64,000 nt of DNA from Thainema sp. (GTDB lineage: Bacteria > Cyanobacteriota > Cyanobacteriia > Phormidesmidales > Phormidesmidaceae), in the NCBI GenBank assembly GCA_052168235.1, contig JBQLZK010000002.1, forward strand, positions 224,001 through 288,000. The letters run 5' to 3'. The notes beneath the pieces are model-generated. The model searched no databases, was not told the DNA's origin, and saw only the letters and a program-made list of their open reading frames with translations. The translations under genes and the position numbers were made by a program. This document shows, in pieces, positions 29,999 through 36,970 of this stretch (positions are counted from its first letter, which is position 1; each line of letters starts with the position of its first letter).

Positions 29999-30460
29999 TT
30001 ACTGAAAATCTGGATAGTTGCGACTGCCTTCAAACATTGATTCCAATTCCTCAACAGTTGCCAGAATTGCCTCTGTGTCTCCATCTGTAACCAATTCTTT
30101 AATCTCTTTGAGCCGTTCTAGCACTCCTGTTTGTCCATCCGGCAACAATGCCTGGAACTGATACCAATTGTAGAGGTGATATAGCAAATGATATGTCATG
30201 CCAATATCCGGTTCACGGTTGGGTTCACATAGAAACAGCTCTAAATCGACTAACCAGTCTATGGCGGCTCCAACTCCGTCCACGTAAGTATGAAAAACAG
30301 CCGTTTTCAACATTTCGCTTGGTGTATTGGGAAAGACTTGGCGAAATGCCCGTTCTGCTTCGCTACTTAGGTCACTTCGCTGTAGCAAGGTTCGTACTAT
30401 TTCCCAACGCTGCTCTCGATTCAGTGGTTTTGGTGTATGTGGATCTTTTGACGGTTGCAT
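29999..30460 (-). CDS. Hypothetical protein
   Basis: 153-aa ORF with AGGTG upstream, opposite to the surrounding operon. Confidence 0.7.
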   Translation of the reverse strand: MQPSKDPHTPKPLNREQRWEIVRTLLQRSDLSSEAERAFRQVFPNTPSEMLKTAVFHTYVDGVGAAIDWLVDLELFLCEPNREPDIGMTYHLLYHLYNWYQFQALLPDGQTGVLERLKEIKELVTDGDTEAILATVEELESMFEGSRNYPDFQ

Positions 30461-30546
30461 CTAATCACACCTAGTAAAACTAATCACCCGCTCTAATCAA
30501 GCGATTTTGGCATATATCTCTATTCGTTATCTCCCAAAAACATCTA

Positions 30547-30681
30547 ATGACACGACTCTCCAATCTTGCTCGCAAAAAGAACATCCATTACTTCCTAATC
30601 TACTTCACTGACCTGTTCGGTACTCAGCGCGCCAAGCTTGTCCCTGCGGCTGCAATTGACGAGATGGCCGCTAGTGGTGCA
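30547..30681 (+). pseudogene. Truncated duplicate of the glnT 5' end (~45 codons)
   Basis: ...YFLIYFTDLFGTQRAKLVPAAAIDEMAASGA matches the 35660 gene start; similarity ends just before the HIP1 site at 30685. Confidence 0.9.
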
Positions 30682-30841
30682 GATGCGATCGCGCTTCTCA
30701 GAATCTGCATGCTCCAAATCCAACGAATTTTCAGGATTGATTGTTGCAAGATTGAAGATGTAAGCGGGAATACTGAGAAGTGGATCTGCTTAACCGCTGC
30801 TTCATTCTTCTCTGCACTAGCTCTCCGAAGTTTTACTGATT

Positions 30842-32572
30842 ATGTCGCGCCTCCTCGTCACGCAGTATCAATCTGAAGTTGATAGCCTCATCCGCTATGG
30901 TGGGTCGCGCAATGAAGCCAGCATTCGGCGGGCGTTTGAAAATTTGCTGAACCAGTACTGCAAGCCGCGCAACTACATGCTGGTGCCAGAGCTGGACTAC
31001 AAGACCAAGTTCAATACGACGGTTAGGCCCGATGGCACAGTGAAGGATGCTATTCGCCTAGAGCATGGCTGGTGGGAGAGCAAAGACGAATACGACGTGC
31101 TCGATGAGGAAATTGAGAAGAAGTTTGCTAAGGGCTATCCCGACGAAAATATTTTGTTTGAAGACTCCCAGACGGCGGTGCTGTATCAGCATGGGCGGGA
31201 GCAGTTGCGGGTGTCGATGCGCGATGCCGATGAGCTGGACGGGCTGATCGCCACGTTTGTCGATTACGAACGGCCTGAAGTGCGGGACTTTCGGACGGCG
31301 ATCAAAGCCTTTCGCGATGATATTCCTCACATTCTGGAAGCGCTGCGAGATCAAATTCATCAGGCCGAGCGAGAAAATGAGCGGTTCCGGGAACGCCGCA
31401 ACACGTTTCTGGAAGTCTGCCGCCAGTCCATCAACCCGGAAATTGAGATCTTCGACATCCATGAGATGTTGATTCAGCACATTCTCACGGAGGATATTTT
31501 CACCAATATTTTCCATGAGTCGCAGTTTCACCGCGAAAACAACATCGCGCGGGAAATCTCAGAAATTCTCGCCACGTTTTTTACGGGAGCGACGCGCAAG
31601 AATACGCTGAAAAGCATTGAGCACTACTACGCGGTGATCCGCCGCAAGTCGGAAAACATCGCCAATCACCACGAAAAGCAGAAGTTTCTCAAGGCGGTGT
31701 ATGAGAACTTTTACAAGGCGTACAACCCCAAAGCTGCGGATCGGCTGGGCATTGTCTACACGCCGAATGAAATTGTGCGCTTCATGATTGAGAGTGCCGA
31801 TTATTTGACCCACAAGCATTTTGGCAAGCTGCTGAGTGATCCGGGGGTGGAGATTTTAGACCCCTGCACGGGTACGGGCACCTATGTGACGGAGCTGATT
31901 GAGTATTTGCCAACCGATAAGCTGGAGCACAAATATAAGCATGAGATTCACTGCAATGAAGTGGCGATTTTGCCCTATTACATTGCGAACTTGAATATTG
32001 AGTTTACCTATCAGCAAAAGATGGGTAAGTACGAGGAGTTTAAGAATATTTGTCTGGTGGATACACTGGATCACTGCAGTGCAGCAGGCCACCAGTTTGA
32101 CCTGTTTGCTATGAGTGTGCAGAACACGTCGCGGATTCAGCAGCAGAACGATCGCACCATCTCTGTCATCATCGGCAATCCGCCCTACAACGCCCACCAG
32201 GAAAACTTCAATCAGCGCAACGCTAACCGCCCCTACCAAAGTATCGATAAGGCCATCAAAGACAGCTATATCAAGGAAGGCACTGCCCAGAACCAAATCG
32301 TTGTCTACGATATGTATACCCGCTTCTTTCGCTGGGCAACGGATCGATTAGGCAAGAACGGAATCATCGCGTTTATTACTAATCGCTCTTTCATCGACTC
32401 GAAAACCTTTGATGGCTTTCGTAAATGTATTGAGCGAGACTTTGACCATATCTACATTGTGGATACTCAATCAGATGTGAGAAACAATCCCAAAATCTCT
32501 GGCACCAAGAACAACGTTTTTGGCATTCAAACCGGAATCGCTGTGATGTTTTTAGTAAAAGCGCAGGGCTAG
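30842..32572 (+). CDS. Type IIG/ISP-like RM enzyme, nuclease + N6-adenine methyltransferase part
   Basis: RPDG...WWESKD PD-(D/E)xK-like motif; GIVYTP; ILDPCTGTG (motif I); IGNPPY (motif IV); no helicase motifs. Confidence 0.88.
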   Translation: MSRLLVTQYQSEVDSLIRYGGSRNEASIRRAFENLLNQYCKPRNYMLVPELDYKTKFNTTVRPDGTVKDAIRLEHGWWESKDEYDVLDEEIEKKFAKGYPDENILFEDSQTAVLYQHGREQLRVSMRDADELDGLIATFVDYERPEVRDFRTAIKAFRDDIPHILEALRDQIHQAERENERFRERRNTFLEVCRQSINPEIEIFDIHEMLIQHILTEDIFTNIFHESQFHRENNIAREISEILATFFTGATRKNTLKSIEHYYAVIRRKSENIANHHEKQKFLKAVYENFYKAYNPKAADRLGIVYTPNEIVRFMIESADYLTHKHFGKLLSDPGVEILDPCTGTGTYVTELIEYLPTDKLEHKYKHEIHCNEVAILPYYIANLNIEFTYQQKMGKYEEFKNICLVDTLDHCSAAGHQFDLFAMSVQNTSRIQQQNDRTISVIIGNPPYNAHQENFNQRNANRPYQSIDKAIKDSYIKEGTAQNQIVVYDMYTRFFRWATDRLGKNGIIAFITNRSFIDSKTFDGFRKCIERDFDHIYIVDTQSDVRNNPKISGTKNNVFGIQTGIAVMFLVKAQG

Positions 32573-32586
32573 ACAAGGGGCACAGA

Positions 32587-34116
32587 CAAGGGGCTTAAGC
32601 CCCTTGTTCATAAGGGAGGGGGAGAAGCATGAGCAAGGCGAAAATCTATTACTTTACGCTGCAAGATGAGCAGACCAAGGAAGAAAAGCTGGAGTGGTTT
32701 GAGCAAACCCGTCTAGAGCAAATCCTGTTTGAGCATATCACCCCAGACCGCAAGCACAACTGGGTGAATTTGACCGACAACGATTTTGATGACTTCTTGC
32801 CGCTGATTGATAAGCAGGTAAAGGCAAGTAAGTCACAAGAAGCTGTTTTTCAGCTTTTTTCAGCGGGGGTTAAGACTCAGCGCGATGAGTGGGTTTATGA
32901 CTTCTCAAAAGAAGCGCTAATTGAGCGCATGAAGTATTTCGTCGAGGTATATCAAGAGCGTCTAAGAGATGGATCGCGACGAAATTTAGACATCAAGTGG
33001 GATCGTGAGCTTGAAAAATATTTGACTAGTAACGTCAAGAAGAGTTTTCATACATCTAATATAGTTCAAAGTATTTACCGACCGTATACAAAACAGTATC
33101 TCTATTTTGATAAGCATTTCAATGGAATGACTTATCAACTTCCAAGTATTTTTCCATCAGCAAAGAAACCTAATAAGGCTATTTGGATTAAATCGGGTAT
33201 AGATGCTCCGTATTTTCATTGGGTTGTAGAGCACATCCCTGATGTGCTTACAAACGGTGGCTCTCAATGCCTCCCCCTCTATCGCTATGACGAAAACGGA
33301 ACCCGCATCGACAACATCACCGACTGGGCATTAGAGCAGTTTCGGCAACATTACAAAGCAGAGTTAGACCAAGCAGCGTCTAAGGCAGCGTCAGGCAAGG
33401 GGCTTAAGCCCCTTGTTCCCCACACAGATGTAGAAAAGCGCAGCGCAGAACAAAACGATCGCTCAGGCGAACCGGGCAAGGGGCTTAAGCCCCTTGTCTC
33501 AGCGGAGCCCCTTGTTCCCCATACATGGTGGTTTGTAACTTTCGTGACTCATAACGCTCGCGTATCCGAACGCATGGTTACTTACGGCGTCAAAAAAGGG
33601 GAACCGCTTATCTTTTCAGCCGAAGATCAAATCTTTATTGCTGAGCAGATTGCTGAAGCTGTCAAACGGTACGAAATTGCGATCGCCGCCTTCAATGTTC
33701 TACCCGATCACGTCCACATGGTGGTTGCCGCATCAACCGAAGCAGAACTGAACGAAAAGATCCGCAAAATCAAAGGTTTTAGTTCTCACCAATATCAGCG
33801 ATCGCGAGACTGGGATAAAGGTCAGCATGTTTGGGCGCAAAAATTTAACCGACAGGCGATCGAAAATGAAATTGCCCTCACTGAGATTTTGGAATATGTG
33901 CTGAATAACCACACTAAACATGCTGAACGCTGGGGCAATGAACTCATTACGATATGGAATGAGGGTGTTACTCCTGGGAACAAGGGGCTTAAGCCCCTTG
34001 TCTTAGAGGGGCCCCTTGCCTCTAGTCGGCCTCTTGCCGAAATTGTGCGAGAAGTCTGCGTTCCGCTTGAAGAGCTTTTCAGCTCTGGAGGGGGAACAAG
34101 GGGCTTAAGCCCCTTG
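32587..34116. repeat. Five copies of 20-bp perfect palindrome CAAGGGGCTTAAGCCCCTTG
   Basis: Copies at 32587, 33396, 33477, 33981, 34097; half copies near 32573, 33506, 34011. Confidence 0.95.
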
Positions 34117-34749
34117 TCTGACCAAGTTGACCAGGCAGAAATCACCAAACTCGACATCTTCCACTACACCTACGCCGTCCTCCACCATCCCGCCTACCGC
34201 ACCAAATACGAACTCAACCTCAAACGCGAATTTCCTCGCCTGCCCTACTACCCCAACTTCCAACAGTGGGCCACCTGGGGCAAAACCCTCATGGATCTGC
34301 ACCTCACCTACGAAACCGCCGCACCCTACGGCCTCGAACGCATTGATCAATCCGGCGTAGGGGCGAATGGCCATTCGCCCCTACAGGCATCGTTAATTCC
34401 CGAAGAAGACACCCCCGCCAAACCCAAGAAAACCCCCAAACCCAAACTCAAAGCCGACAAAACCCAAGGCCATATCATCCTCGATACCGATACCACCCTT
34501 ACCGGAGTGCCCGCCGTTGCCTGGGACTACAAACTCGGCAACCGCTCCGCCCTGGAGTGGATACTCGATCAATACAAAGAAAAGAAACCCAAAGATCCTA
34601 CGATCCGAGAACTCTTCAACACCTACCGCTTCGCCGATTACAAAGAGCACGTCATCGACCTACTCCAGCGCGTCTGCACCGTCAGCGTCGAGACGATGAA
34701 AATCATCCACCAAATGCCCGACACTGTAGAACATGAAGGCGAGGCATGA
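32629..34749 (+). CDS. Type ISP-like C-terminal specificity subunit with in-frame RAYT insertion
   Basis: GVKTQRDEWVY, YRPY, NITDWAL..F..HY, ITKLDIFHY.YAVLHHPAYR.KY..NLKREFPRLP, LGNRSALEW; own purine-rich RBS. Confidence 0.85.
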   Translation: MSKAKIYYFTLQDEQTKEEKLEWFEQTRLEQILFEHITPDRKHNWVNLTDNDFDDFLPLIDKQVKASKSQEAVFQLFSAGVKTQRDEWVYDFSKEALIERMKYFVEVYQERLRDGSRRNLDIKWDRELEKYLTSNVKKSFHTSNIVQSIYRPYTKQYLYFDKHFNGMTYQLPSIFPSAKKPNKAIWIKSGIDAPYFHWVVEHIPDVLTNGGSQCLPLYRYDENGTRIDNITDWALEQFRQHYKAELDQAASKAASGKGLKPLVPHTDVEKRSAEQNDRSGEPGKGLKPLVSAEPLVPHTWWFVTFVTHNARVSERMVTYGVKKGEPLIFSAEDQIFIAEQIAEAVKRYEIAIAAFNVLPDHVHMVVAASTEAELNEKIRKIKGFSSHQYQRSRDWDKGQHVWAQKFNRQAIENEIALTEILEYVLNNHTKHAERWGNELITIWNEGVTPGNKGLKPLVLEGPLASSRPLAEIVREVCVPLEELFSSGGGTRGLSPLSDQVDQAEITKLDIFHYTYAVLHHPAYRTKYELNLKREFPRLPYYPNFQQWATWGKTLMDLHLTYETAAPYGLERIDQSGVGANGHSPLQASLIPEEDTPAKPKKTPKPKLKADKTQGHIILDTDTTLTGVPAVAWDYKLGNRSALEWILDQYKEKKPKDPTIRELFNTYRFADYKEHVIDLLQRVCTVSVETMKIIHQMPDTVEHEGEA
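33355..34140 (+). mobile_element. REP-associated tyrosine transposase (Y1 HUH) domain with flanking palindromes, in frame in the RM subunit
   Basis: WFVTFVT, VLPDHVH (HUH, 33709-33717), KIKGFSS, VWAQKF, EYVLNN (Tyr codon at 33895). Confidence 0.82.
34357..34384. repeat. GTAG-type REP-like palindrome inside the coding frame
   Basis: gtaggggcgaatggccattcgcccctac, translated VGANGHSPL. Confidence 0.85.
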
Positions 34750-34753
34750 TGGT

Positions 34754-34840
34754 GCTGTGAGCAACCATTTCAAACTCTCCGATACCAAGAACAACGTCTT
34801 TGGCATTCAAACCAGAACCGCTGTCATGTTTTTAGTAAAA
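34754..34840 (+). repeat. Diverged duplicate of the MTase gene 3' end
   Basis: Aligns ungapped with 32474-32560 (accaagaacaacgt.tttggcattcaaacc.gaa.cgctgt.atgtttttagtaaaa). Confidence 0.9.
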
Positions 34841-34860
34841 ACTGCTGAGGAGAAAAAGCC

Positions 34861-35130
34861 ATGATTCAACCTACTTTGTTAGAGAAACTAGAGGTATTAC
34901 CAGAATCACTACAAACGGAAGTGCTGCATTATGTTGAATTTCTGTTAGAGAAACACCTCAAAAATAAACCACCTAGCCTTTTAGAATTACGGGAAGAATT
35001 ACAGCAGGAATTAGCGCAACTCACGCCGGAAGAAGCGGAAAAGCGTTATGGATATGGTAGCCTGAAAGGCCAGATTATCATGTCTGATGATTTTGACGAG
35101 CCGCTAGAAGATTTAGCAGAGTATATGTAA
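34861..35130 (+). CDS. DUF2281-type antitoxin
   Basis: LPESLQTEVLHYVEFLL...GSLKGQI.MSDDFDEPLED. Confidence 0.85.
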   Translation: MIQPTLLEKLEVLPESLQTEVLHYVEFLLEKHLKNKPPSLLELREELQQELAQLTPEEAEKRYGYGSLKGQIIMSDDFDEPLEDLAEYM

Positions 35131-35131
35131 C

Positions 35132-35521
35132 ATGCCGATCCTTTTAGATACTCATGCTGTCCTTTGGTATGTTGAGTCAGATCCTAGCCTTAGTGCTAAA
35201 GCTAAGGCTATTTTAGATGCCAAAAAGAATCTGTTTTTTAGTACTGCTAGCCTGTGGGAAACTGCCATCAAGCTCAATGTCGGTAAACTCCAAATCACTT
35301 CGTCATTTAATCAGCTTCTGATTCGGCTTGAGTTCCTGAATATGGAAATTTTGCCGATCAATACAGAAGATCTCAATACTTATATTGGTCTACCTTTATC
35401 GAAGAATCACCGTGATCCCTTTGACCGTATTTTGGTGGCTCAATCCATTAACCATTCAATGCCTATCTTGAGTGGTGACGAGAAATTTGATTTGTATCCA
35501 GTTCAGCGGGTGTGGGAATGA
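35132..35521 (+). CDS. vapC: PIN-domain VapC toxin
   Basis: ILLDTHAVLW, SLWE.AIK, HRDPFDRILVAQ. Confidence 0.9.
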   Translation: MPILLDTHAVLWYVESDPSLSAKAKAILDAKKNLFFSTASLWETAIKLNVGKLQITSSFNQLLIRLEFLNMEILPINTEDLNTYIGLPLSKNHRDPFDRILVAQSINHSMPILSGDEKFDLYPVQRVWE

Positions 35522-35544
35522 GCAAGGCAAAAATCTATTACTTT
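35518..35544 (+). repeat. Duplicate of the specificity-subunit 5' end
   Basis: atgagcaaggcaaaaatctattacttt, 26/27 identical to 32629-32655; ATG overlaps the vapC TGA. Confidence 0.9.
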
Positions 35545-35659
35545 GCTGCGAGATCTGAGGCGGAGATTACGGACAGAAAACCCAGAATCGTGATAATCCA
35601 AGATTGGACTGTAGCGCGATCGCGCTGATTCCCTATACAGCCTTCTTACTCCCCAACCC

Positions 35660-36970
35660 ATGACCCAACCCCTCTCTGACCTCGCCCGCGAAAAAAATAT
35701 CTGCTACTTCCTGATCTCCTTCACCGATTTATTCGGCACCCAACGCGCCAAGCTTGTTCCTGCTGCTGCAATTGACGAGATGGCCGCTAGCGGAGCGGGA
35801 TTTGCCGGATTTGCCACCTGGCTCGACATGACGCCTGCCGATGCCGACATGTTTGCAGTTCCCGACACTGATAGTCTATTCCAGCTACCTTGGAAACCCG
35901 ATGTCGCCTGGATGCCAGCGGATTTGTTTACGCCGAGGATGGATGCGATCGCACAAACGCCGCGCATGGTGCTTCAGCGAGTCCTCCAGCAGGCGCGAGA
36001 CATGGGCTACAGCGTCAAAACGGGGGTGGAATGCGAGTATTTTCTGCTGTCACCGGATGGCGAGGCGCTGTCTGATCCCTACGATCGCCAGGTGAAACCC
36101 TGCTATGACCAGCAGGCACTGATGCGGCGGTTTGATGTGATTGCGGAAATCTGCGATGCCATGCTGGCGCTGGGTTGGGGAGCCTACCAGAACGATCACG
36201 AAGACGCCAACGGTCAGTTTGAGATGAACTGGATGTATGCCGATGCGCTGATCACGGCGGATCGGCATGCGTTCTTTAAGTACATGGTCAAGTCCATTGC
36301 CGAAAAGCATGGTCTGCGAGCCACGTTCATGCCCAAGCCGTTCGCGCACCTGACCGGGAATGGCTGCCACACTCACCTCTCAGTGTGGGACACCAGCGGC
36401 ACAACGAATCTATTTCACGATCCAGAAGGCGAACTAGGTCTGTCGTCACTGGCCTACAACTTCATTGGCGGCGTAATGCATTCAGCATCAGCGCTTTGCG
36501 CCTTTACCAATCCAACCATTAACTCCTACAAGCGGATTAATGCGCCCACCACCCTGTCCGGCGCAACTTGGTCGCCCAATACCGCCAGCTACAGCGGCAA
36601 CAATCGCACCCATGCCATCCGAATTCCTGACTCTGGACGGTTTGAGCTGCGGTTGGCCGATGGTGCAGCTAATCCCTATTTACTCGCAGCGGCAATGGTT
36701 GCGGCAGGACTGGACGGCATTGCCCAGAAGCGTGACCCTGGCCCCCGCTGTGACAACAACAACTACACCGAGCCGCTGCCACAAGGTTCAGCGAAGCCTC
36801 TGCCTGCCAATCTATTAGATGCCTTGCGGCAGTTGGAGCAAAATACCGTCTTCCAGGATGCGATGGGAGCAGAGTTTGTACAGTCTTATCTCAAGCTCAA
36901 GCATCAGGAATGGAACAGCTACCACGCTCAAATTACGCCGTGGGAACGGGAAACGACGCTGGATTGTTAG
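35660..36970 (+). CDS. glnT: GlnT-type glutamate-ammonia ligase / gamma-glutamylmethylamide synthetase-like
   Basis: FTDLFG.QRAKLVPA, GAGFAGFATWLD, NDHEDANGQFEMNW, TFMPKPF..LTGNGCH, NNRTH. Confidence 0.88.
   Translation: MTQPLSDLAREKNICYFLISFTDLFGTQRAKLVPAAAIDEMAASGAGFAGFATWLDMTPADADMFAVPDTDSLFQLPWKPDVAWMPADLFTPRMDAIAQTPRMVLQRVLQQARDMGYSVKTGVECEYFLLSPDGEALSDPYDRQVKPCYDQQALMRRFDVIAEICDAMLALGWGAYQNDHEDANGQFEMNWMYADALITADRHAFFKYMVKSIAEKHGLRATFMPKPFAHLTGNGCHTHLSVWDTSGTTNLFHDPEGELGLSSLAYNFIGGVMHSASALCAFTNPTINSYKRINAPTTLSGATWSPNTASYSGNNRTHAIRIPDSGRFELRLADGAANPYLLAAAMVAAGLDGIAQKRDPGPRCDNNNYTEPLPQGSAKPLPANLLDALRQLEQNTVFQDAMGAEFVQSYLKLKHQEWNSYHAQITPWERETTLDC

Follow-up and report, generated by a model that had tools for sequence, protein, structure and literature searches.

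A DrdV/MmeI-like type IIL restriction-modification gene divided in two in Thainema sp., with a probable REP copy at the junction and a RAYT-like domain nested in the specificity gene

Restriction-modification (RM) systems are known in which catalysis and specificity reside on separate polypeptides, as in the BcgI-type enzymes, where a nuclease-methylase subunit is joined by a separate specificity subunit, and in the type I systems, with their HsdM/HsdS subunits. DrdV, by comparison, is a single-chain enzyme of type IIL, for which the available part of the structural report describes an N-terminal nuclease, a helical connector, a methyltransferase (MTase) at residues 295–635 and a target-recognition domain (TRD) at residues 636–1029 (10.1101/2021.01.06.425610). 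The locus considered here belongs to the cyanobacterium Thainema sp. and lies in a stretch of 64,000 nucleotides (nt), called the window, which was analysed as a whole (GenBank assembly GCA_052168235.1, contig JBQLZK010000002.1, positions 224,001–288,000 of the forward strand); all coordinates are those of the window. At this locus the counterpart of the DrdV chain is shared between two consecutive open reading frames (ORFs), ORF1 and ORF2. Judged by sequence comparison, these are the halves of one DrdV/MmeI-like type IIL RM enzyme, and they probably represent a conserved and functional two-gene variant of this type. The overall explanation favoured here, held with reasonable though limited confidence, is that an old split at the level of one clade would have given rise to a two-part RM enzyme, and that the short palindrome now found between the two genes would be a passenger, a repetitive extragenic palindrome (REP) belonging to a REP-associated tyrosine transposase (RAYT)-like domain nested in ORF2. 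The features of the two genes and of their junction are the following.

30842–32572, plus strand: ORF1, 576 amino acids, comprising a nuclease, a helical connector and an N6-adenine methyltransferase core, with a TAG stop at 32570–32572
32475–32560, plus strand: repeated 3' end of ORF1, the left copy of an 85-nt direct repeat (local alignment to 34755–34840, about 84% identity)
32572–32580: half copy of a palindrome arm, gacaagggg, read directly from the sequence
32586–32607: perfect 22-bp palindrome (REP copy) in the ORF1–ORF2 spacer, likewise read directly
32614–32624, plus strand: GGGAGGGGGAG, a purine-rich Shine-Dalgarno-like run, with GGAGG 9 nt before the ORF2 ATG
32629–34749, plus strand: ORF2, 706 amino acids from an ATG at 32629, comprising the last methyltransferase-fold strand or strands, the target-recognition domain and a 260-residue in-frame insert

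The spacer between the ORF1 stop and the ORF2 ATG measures 56 nt, and ORF2 is read in the +2 frame relative to ORF1. Past its TAG, the frame of ORF1 stays open through the spacer as far as a TGA (32630–32632) that overlaps the ORF2 ATG. A first-pass annotation of the window had described the ORF1 stop, the half copy, the 22-bp palindrome, the ribosome-binding site and the 56-nt gap, and each of these was found where it had been placed. Scanning for promoters and terminators detected nothing promoter-like or terminator-like at the junction and no terminator-like run of T residues, and an Rfam scan of positions 30000–36000 (E up to 1) returned a single match, a chance miRNA. Fusion of the two products by read-through or frameshifting was considered and rejected: it would need suppression of the TAG together with a change of frame, and two relatives with a palindrome at the junction, G037 and L016, differ in stop and frame.

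Among solved structures, the best match to both ORFs is the 1029-residue chain of 7LO5/7LVV. Residues 1–574 of ORF1 align to residues 1–578 of DrdV (PDB 7LO5; E 6e-202), and ORF2 aligns to the remainder in two parts (E 7e-114), its residues 4–243 corresponding to DrdV 588–839 and its residues 504–698 to DrdV 842–1026. The Pfam families ISP_coupler, N6_Mtase and Eco57I match ORF1, the last two above the cut-off, and Type_ISP_C (PF18135) matches ORF2 in two stretches flanking a Y1_Tnp domain (308.9 bits, E 6e-92). In PADLOC both halves match one model of 1024 positions, REase_MTase_IIG PDLC03621, of which ORF1 covers positions 6–585. LlaBIII is matched by ORF1 only from LlaBIII residue 751, whereas DrdV is matched from residue 1, which sets the enzyme apart from type ISP. 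Thirteen aligned ORF1 sequences are invariant in the nuclease at D64, E79 and K81, which we take to be the catalytic residues of a PD-(D/E)xK-type nuclease, in the S-adenosylmethionine-binding motif D340–G346 and in the NPPY motif N446-P-P-Y449, the last two as in a gamma-type N6-adenine methyltransferase.

The likeness to DrdV and MmeI thus consists of the same domain order, strong similarity over the full length and the lack of a translocase domain, no helicase family having been found in the enzyme by the Pfam scan. The differences are that the chain is here cut into two genes and that the TRD holds a 260-residue insert between positions equivalent to DrdV 839 and 842. The cut corresponds to DrdV residues 578–588, about 50 residues ahead of the MTase/TRD border drawn by the authors of that structure, and falls in a stretch which in fused relatives forms a lysine-rich linker. 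In place of the single polypeptide by which type IIL is defined, there is a TAG stop, a second gene in another frame and the 56-nt spacer. By analogy, the locus shares with BcgI and HsdM/HsdS the placing of catalysis and specificity on separate polypeptides, predicted here to assemble, but the sequence families are others and the specificity gene also holds part of the methyltransferase fold.

A survey of homologs for fused and split forms, as the first-pass annotation had called for, found that close homologs are not uniformly fused. The 82 DNA sources scored comprise the window, L013 (a locus of genome G037) and 80 loci, and among the 76 that could be classified (L023, L027, L036, L083, L090 and L089 could not) the junction is fused in 50 and split in 26. 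The split sources represent 25 distinct loci, L026 being the same stretch as L013. In a tree of 62 ORF1 sequences, from which 20 of the 82 sources had been left out as duplicates or for having fewer than 400 residues matched, a clade of 18 rows, with a Shimodaira-Hasegawa-like approximate likelihood-ratio test (SH-aLRT) value of 100, takes in 15 of the 18 split rows together with three fused ones. On this comparison the split is not a private decay of the window, and nearly all split loci belong to one cyanobacterial clade. Only 8 of the best 120 ORF2 homologs carry methyltransferase domains, the remainder being specificity-only ORFs, mostly of 392–479 residues and from many cyanobacteria. When 401 genomes of the class were sampled evenly, 59 gave a match; among matches that cover at least 200 residues and are free of stops, tallied by hand, the open frame was shorter than 860 residues in 38 cases, 989–1290 residues long in 14 and at least 1560 in 5. 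A distant second group of specificity-only frames, of about 447–453 residues and 36–41% identical, was observed to be common in one genus (for example in G334, G370, G384, G125 and G391).

Both halves show the signature of purifying selection. Between the window and its split relatives, NG86 dN/dS is 0.04–0.13 for ORF1, 0.09–0.28 for the N-terminal part of ORF2 and 0.05–0.23 for its C-terminal part, and these values hold at dS from about 0.6 to above 2. When compared to L013, dS is 1.66 for ORF1 and 0.65 for the C-terminal part of ORF2, an inequality which indicates that parts of the locus have different histories. Among the relatives, L020 and L017 have an ORF1 that is nearly identical over most of its length (tree path 0.035); L020 is fused and has a different tail and TRD, L017 is split and holds a DUF4258 toxin-antitoxin (TA) pair, and this contrast points to recombination inside ORF1. 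L020 is labelled as Bacteroidota, yet it is placed among cyanobacterial sequences.

The content of the gap has been compared across the 25 distinct split loci. A DUF2281 antitoxin and a PIN toxin occupy it in 11 loci, with one more locus retaining a degraded remnant of them; DUF4258 with an MqsA-like zinc-finger protein is found in 5, both kinds of TA pair in 1 and a GIY-YIG nuclease in 1, and 3 loci have a short plain gap. The palindrome stands alone in the gap of the remaining 3, namely the window, G037 (L013) and L016. The TA genes in the gap overlap both halves by stop and start codons and are in this way translationally coupled to them, and L029 displays the scar of a TA deletion with both ORFs intact. 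An independently split homolog with a GIY-YIG nuclease gene at the same junction was observed in a Methylococcales genome (L044:2929–3261). It is proposed that the break would be old and inherited within one cyanobacterial clade, situated in the lysine-rich surface linker of the single-chain form, and that the gap in this clade would normally house a translationally coupled TA pair. The housing of a toxin gene in an RM gene cluster recalls the PrrC anticodon nuclease, which is encoded within the EcoprrI type I RM operon; the difference is that here a full TA pair lies between the halves of a gene that is single elsewhere, and that in the window the pair is displaced to a position after ORF2.

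In the proposed mechanism, ORF1, with the nuclease, connector and MTase core, and ORF2, with the last MTase strand and the TRD, would assemble non-covalently in the manner of an RM + S enzyme, and ORF2 would be translated from its own Shine-Dalgarno sequence on a transcript shared with ORF1. A model of the complex between ORF1 and residues 1–243 of ORF2 obtained a score of 0.77, against 0.02 for the best control, a mark that 116 of 157 solved complexes but 2 of 215 mismatched pairs attain. Contacts agreed between runs to at least 87%, the pLDDT (predicted local distance difference test) of the partner was at least 76, and ORF2 residues 2–13 pair as a strand with ORF1 residues 534–544. The model may pass only by mirroring the likeness to DrdV, because DrdV is a solved single chain. 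ORF2 alone, predicted with AlphaFold2 from an alignment of 35 rows, reached a mean pLDDT of 53.6 and a predicted template modelling (pTM) score of 0.34, too poor for a fold search. The functional two-subunit form put forward in the first-pass annotation is thus supported indirectly, by close homologs that are mostly split, purifying selection on both halves, retained catalytic motifs, start signals of ORF2's own and a complex model that passes, and its activity is a prediction from sequence and modelling.

Several observations weigh against an old and functional split. The break falls inside the MTase domain of DrdV and not at a domain border, so that a single fold has to be completed by the two halves together. 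The deletion of the TA pair in the window took away the ATGA coupling used by most relatives, and the ORF1 TAG lies 20 codons ahead of the TGA which overlaps the ORF2 ATG, the site of the older ATGA overlap; this TAG could be a recent nonsense change. Given that dN/dS averages both lineages, a recent loss of function in the window after the TA deletion stays compatible with the values obtained. The gene is sporadic: among 39 further genomes of the family it was found in 1, and it was not found in the same-genus genome G001. The two alleles with a palindrome at the junction do not group as sisters in the ORF1 tree, each standing among TA-bearing alleles, which means that the REP came twice or was moved by recombination. 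As to the order of events, a split before TA insertion and TA insertion first are both compatible with the data. No sequencing run found contains more than 0.33 of the sampled words. Contigs assembled from four runs include one DNA contig identical over 32457–32609; loose ends show the TA-type junctions of relatives, and contigs from RNA libraries hold the PIN-to-ORF2 joints of relatives, which is no demonstration of transcription.

The strongest of the other explanations is simple decay, in which a gene broken by mobile DNA (TA, REP and RAYT) would persist as an inactive relic, its frames open for lack of time. The early TAG and the sporadic distribution agree with it, as do the four kinds of inserted element and the truncated second specificity gene at the locus, described below, and the homologs of G269, G107 and G283, which are visibly broken by in-frame stops. 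Nonetheless, decay is regarded as unlikely, considering that 25 distinct loci share the split and have kept both halves intact, at dN/dS of 0.04–0.28 and dS of 0.6–2, that the 260-residue insert of ORF2 is free of stops in all five RAYT-bearing alleles, down to 59% identity, that the catalytic motifs are invariant and that a strong Shine-Dalgarno sequence stands at the right distance from the ATG.

The insert of ORF2 and the repeat copies it holds are the following.

33358–34137, plus strand: in-frame insert, a RAYT-like HUH/Tyr transposase domain at ORF2 residues 244–503, with two palindromes on each side and absent from DrdV
33395–33416: left outer palindrome copy, 1 mismatch, read in frame as GKGLKPLV
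33476–33497: left inner palindrome copy, 1 mismatch, with an extra half site after it
33980–34001: right inner palindrome copy, with an extra half site after it
34096–34117: right outer palindrome copy, read as TRGLSPL in the second open frame

The insert matches the Pfam family Y1_Tnp with 50.8 bits (cut-off 23) and the NCBIfam model REP_Tyr_transpos (NF047646) with 59.3 bits, short of the equivalog cut-off of 80, and tblastn finds the RAYT as a single copy in the 7.54-Mb genome. All nine RAYT-bearing proteins aligned retain the HUH motif (DHVH) and the Tyr column. The first-pass annotation had spoken of a RAYT in the downstream gene. A RAYT-like domain is indeed present, but not as a gene of its own: it is a stop-free insert readable only as part of ORF2, and no in-frame ATG, GTG or TTG was found ahead of its conserved N-terminal strand, either in the window or in relatives. 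Of the 75 sources in which both TRD parts were seen, five have the same insert, in frame and with 0 stops, namely the window, L016, L018, L024 and L033, the last being a fused allele. With dN/dS of 0.10–0.24, and identity among alleles as low as 59%, the insert, which several cyanobacteria have conserved, appears to be under purifying selection. Twelve of the best 120 ORF2 homologs carry a RAYT, one of them in a fused protein of 1233 residues.

Several further observations concern inserts of this kind. The repeat-encoded peptides GKGLKPLV and TRGLSPL join the RAYT domain to ORF2 on its two sides. A member of the same RAYT family, 56% identical, lies in frame inside an Eco57I-type methylase (L137:1–1470, minus strand), just ahead of the NPPY motif, with an additional in-frame palindrome downstream. 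In G037 (L013:5838–6545), a DUF559 (Vsr-like) endonuclease domain occupies, in frame, exactly the site of the RAYT in the window and is flanked by 132-nt direct repeats encoding PSPAGEGQGERGN-type peptides; the same domain family (PF04480) is likewise carried by 16 of the best 120 ORF2 homologs. The nearest published analogue of an in-frame nuclease insert, as far as the available text goes, is ShiLan, a stop-free, nuclease-carrying insertion in the frame of a phage DNA methylase which is neither intein nor intron (PMC11855218). According to the same text, the HNH nuclease of ShiLan lies in another frame with its own GTG start, whereas the nuclease-like domain of ORF2 is in the host frame and flanked by repeats.

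The palindrome is no chance occurrence: at up to 3 mismatches it has 5 matches in the window, all of them within this locus, against 0 in 100 shuffles, and 12 copies in the 7.54-Mb genome, of which 7 are dispersed singles and 4 lie inside ORF2. The junction copy, on the opposite strand, shares the composite form of the two RAYT-proximal copies, which consists of the palindrome, a short spacer and an extra half site. The palindrome is open in two frames and has a TAA in the third; ORF2 uses the open frames only, and it may be that the palindrome survives inside ORF2 only in these two stop-free frames. In G037 and L016 the third frame provides the ORF1 stop. A 25-nt form of the palindrome occurs in at least 119 metagenomic stretches. 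Among 80 of these metagenomic loci, 78 lack any similarity to RM or RAYT sequences within 900 nt, and 12 have the palindrome copy inside an open frame of at least 150 residues. The palindrome family is not specific to this RM gene.

The palindrome is probably a REP of the RAYT-like domain nested in ORF2. The likeness to REP/REPIN-RAYT systems resides in a single-copy HUH/Tyr transposase-like protein whose flanking palindromes are also dispersed in the genome, and the differences in a RAYT that lacks a start and is read in frame as part of a host protein, in 4 of the 12 repeats lying in a coding frame and in an NCBIfam score below the cut-off. A copy number of 12 is low for a classical REP, which fits the RAYT group common in Cyanobacteria, for which the available portion of a published survey gives few repeats, with 14 occurrences of the flanking 16-mers (Bertels et al., 2017; PMC5581495). 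The view of the first-pass annotation that the junction is a RAYT target finds only loose support, in that the same repeat family flanks the RAYT and 2 of the 5 RAYT-bearing alleles have a junction copy. Against a stricter sense stand the split, which predates the palindrome, the TA pair found in its place in most split alleles, and G037, where a RAYT-less allele has a junction copy in addition to 12 dispersed copies (control 0), and whose 99% complete genome gave no RAYT match with the query used.

How the palindrome may have reached the junction is suggested by L140, a metagenomic contig and the closest relative in this region (ORF1 tail 96.6% and N-terminal part of ORF2 86.8% identical). 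In L140, ORF1 is followed by DUF2281, PIN, an array of half sites, the palindrome and ORF2. In the array itself (L140:915–1019), the 15-nt unit is made of one palindrome arm and a spacer, and its 6.9 head-to-tail repeats adjoin the palindrome. The half copy of the window aligns to the last unit of this array, and the 19-nt stretch from the palindrome flank to the ATG, which holds the Shine-Dalgarno run, aligns to the same stretch in L140. The pre-ATG stretch had first been taken as homologous to the short-split junction of L034; the L140 alignment fits better, and neither is proven. The window looks like an L140-type arrangement after TA loss. In the order of events proposed, the REP, presumably placed through RAYT activity, would have arrived in non-coding DNA, between the PIN stop and the ORF2 ATG, at a time when the gap still held the TA pair; later deletion would have removed that pair along with most of the half-site array and left the REP in place. 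A REP would be tolerated at this site because the spacer is non-coding.

In some Escherichia coli operons, REPs act as intercistronic RNA elements, and the hairpin at the junction might likewise have been co-opted, either for protecting the ORF1 message or for tuning the ratio of ORF1 to ORF2. The predicted fold is in keeping with such a role, with a stable hairpin of 10 pairs located 6 nt ahead of the Shine-Dalgarno-like run, no pairing between the two and no T run. The minimum free energy of the 91-nt stretch is –23.1 kcal/mol, but its z of only –1.8, with 13 of 200 shuffles folding equally well, and the absence of the palindrome from most split alleles make this co-option rather unlikely, somewhat more so than decay.

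The region downstream of ORF2 holds the following features.

34733–34864, plus strand: small ORF of 43 codons containing tail', its stop overlapping the antitoxin ATG
34755–34840, plus strand: tail', a diverged second copy of the ORF1 3' end, starting 6 nt past the ORF2 stop (tblastn 72% over 29 residues)
34861–35130, plus strand: antitoxin of the DUF2281 / VapB family (Pfam DUF2281; NCBIfam TA_VapB 86.3 bits, cut-off 60)
35132–35521, plus strand: PIN-domain (VapC-type) toxin (Pfam PIN, E 3e-16)
35518–35547, plus strand: start remnant of a second specificity gene, its ATG overlapping the PIN stop and its first 9 codons matching ORF2

By NCBIfam, Pfam and gene order, the antitoxin and PIN genes form a VapBC type II TA pair. 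The whole block of tail', TA pair and remnant is 84.5% identical over 792 nt to the ORF1 end, TA pair and ORF2 start of L030, and the same downstream layout is found in L082, with 108 codons of the second specificity gene, and in L033, with 6. It looks as though a new module of ORF1 tail, junction and TRD had been placed ahead of an older module of tail, TA pair and TRD; a tandem duplication would need three events to give this arrangement, and a homology-anchored insertion of the module upstream of the old one would need one. Module exchange seems to have taken the route of the ORF1 3'-end repeat and not that of the palindrome, and no palindrome was found at the ORF2 3' end, nor any sign of palindromes bounding an exchangeable unit at the locus. 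The model of the first-pass annotation, in which the RAYT acts on the palindrome of the junction so that the specificity gene can be cut out and swapped as a cassette, can draw on the single palindrome family shared by the junction and the two flanks of the RAYT, on the junction copy of two RAYT-bearing alleles, on the differing dS of the segments and on the module scar itself, but it is not supported and is held to be very improbable, the least likely of the rival readings, since that scar is bounded by the ORF1 3'-end repeat, 22 of the 25 split loci are without a junction palindrome, the cassette is unflanked at the ORF2 3' end, G037 has its copies with no RAYT found and nearly all the metagenomic palindrome loci are without RM or RAYT similarity nearby.

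A wider conjecture, which is regarded as doubtful and no likelier than decay, may be added. A RAYT lineage without independent expression might live as an in-frame, repeat-linked domain in at least two unrelated DNA-methyltransferase or RM host families, the type IIL TRD and the Eco57I-type methylase of L137, and RAYT and RM enzyme might co-evolve as a single unit. The HUH domain would reach DNA by way of the RM protein; RAYT/REP activity would seed REPs and half-site arrays at the junction, remove the TA pair and promote turnover of specificity modules; and the nested TA pairs would act as a fallback, set off by uncoupling of the halves.

In the literature on RAYTs, type IIL enzymes and VapBC-RM associations, no description was found of a split type IIL enzyme, of a TA pair between its halves or of an in-frame RAYT. 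Type IIL has been treated as the model of an enzyme with everything in one chain, and the loci described here would constitute a widespread natural two-gene form of it. A split point that tolerates separation may be useful for specificity engineering through the swapping of a small gene, and the two-gene form provides a test case for the completion of a methyltransferase fold in trans. The RM gene would also act as a nest for three kinds of selfish module, namely REPs, TA pairs lodged in the linker and, in frame within the TRD, RAYT or DUF559 nucleases. Finally, a RAYT that has no start of its own and is carried in frame by a host protein bears on the question of why single-copy RAYTs persist.

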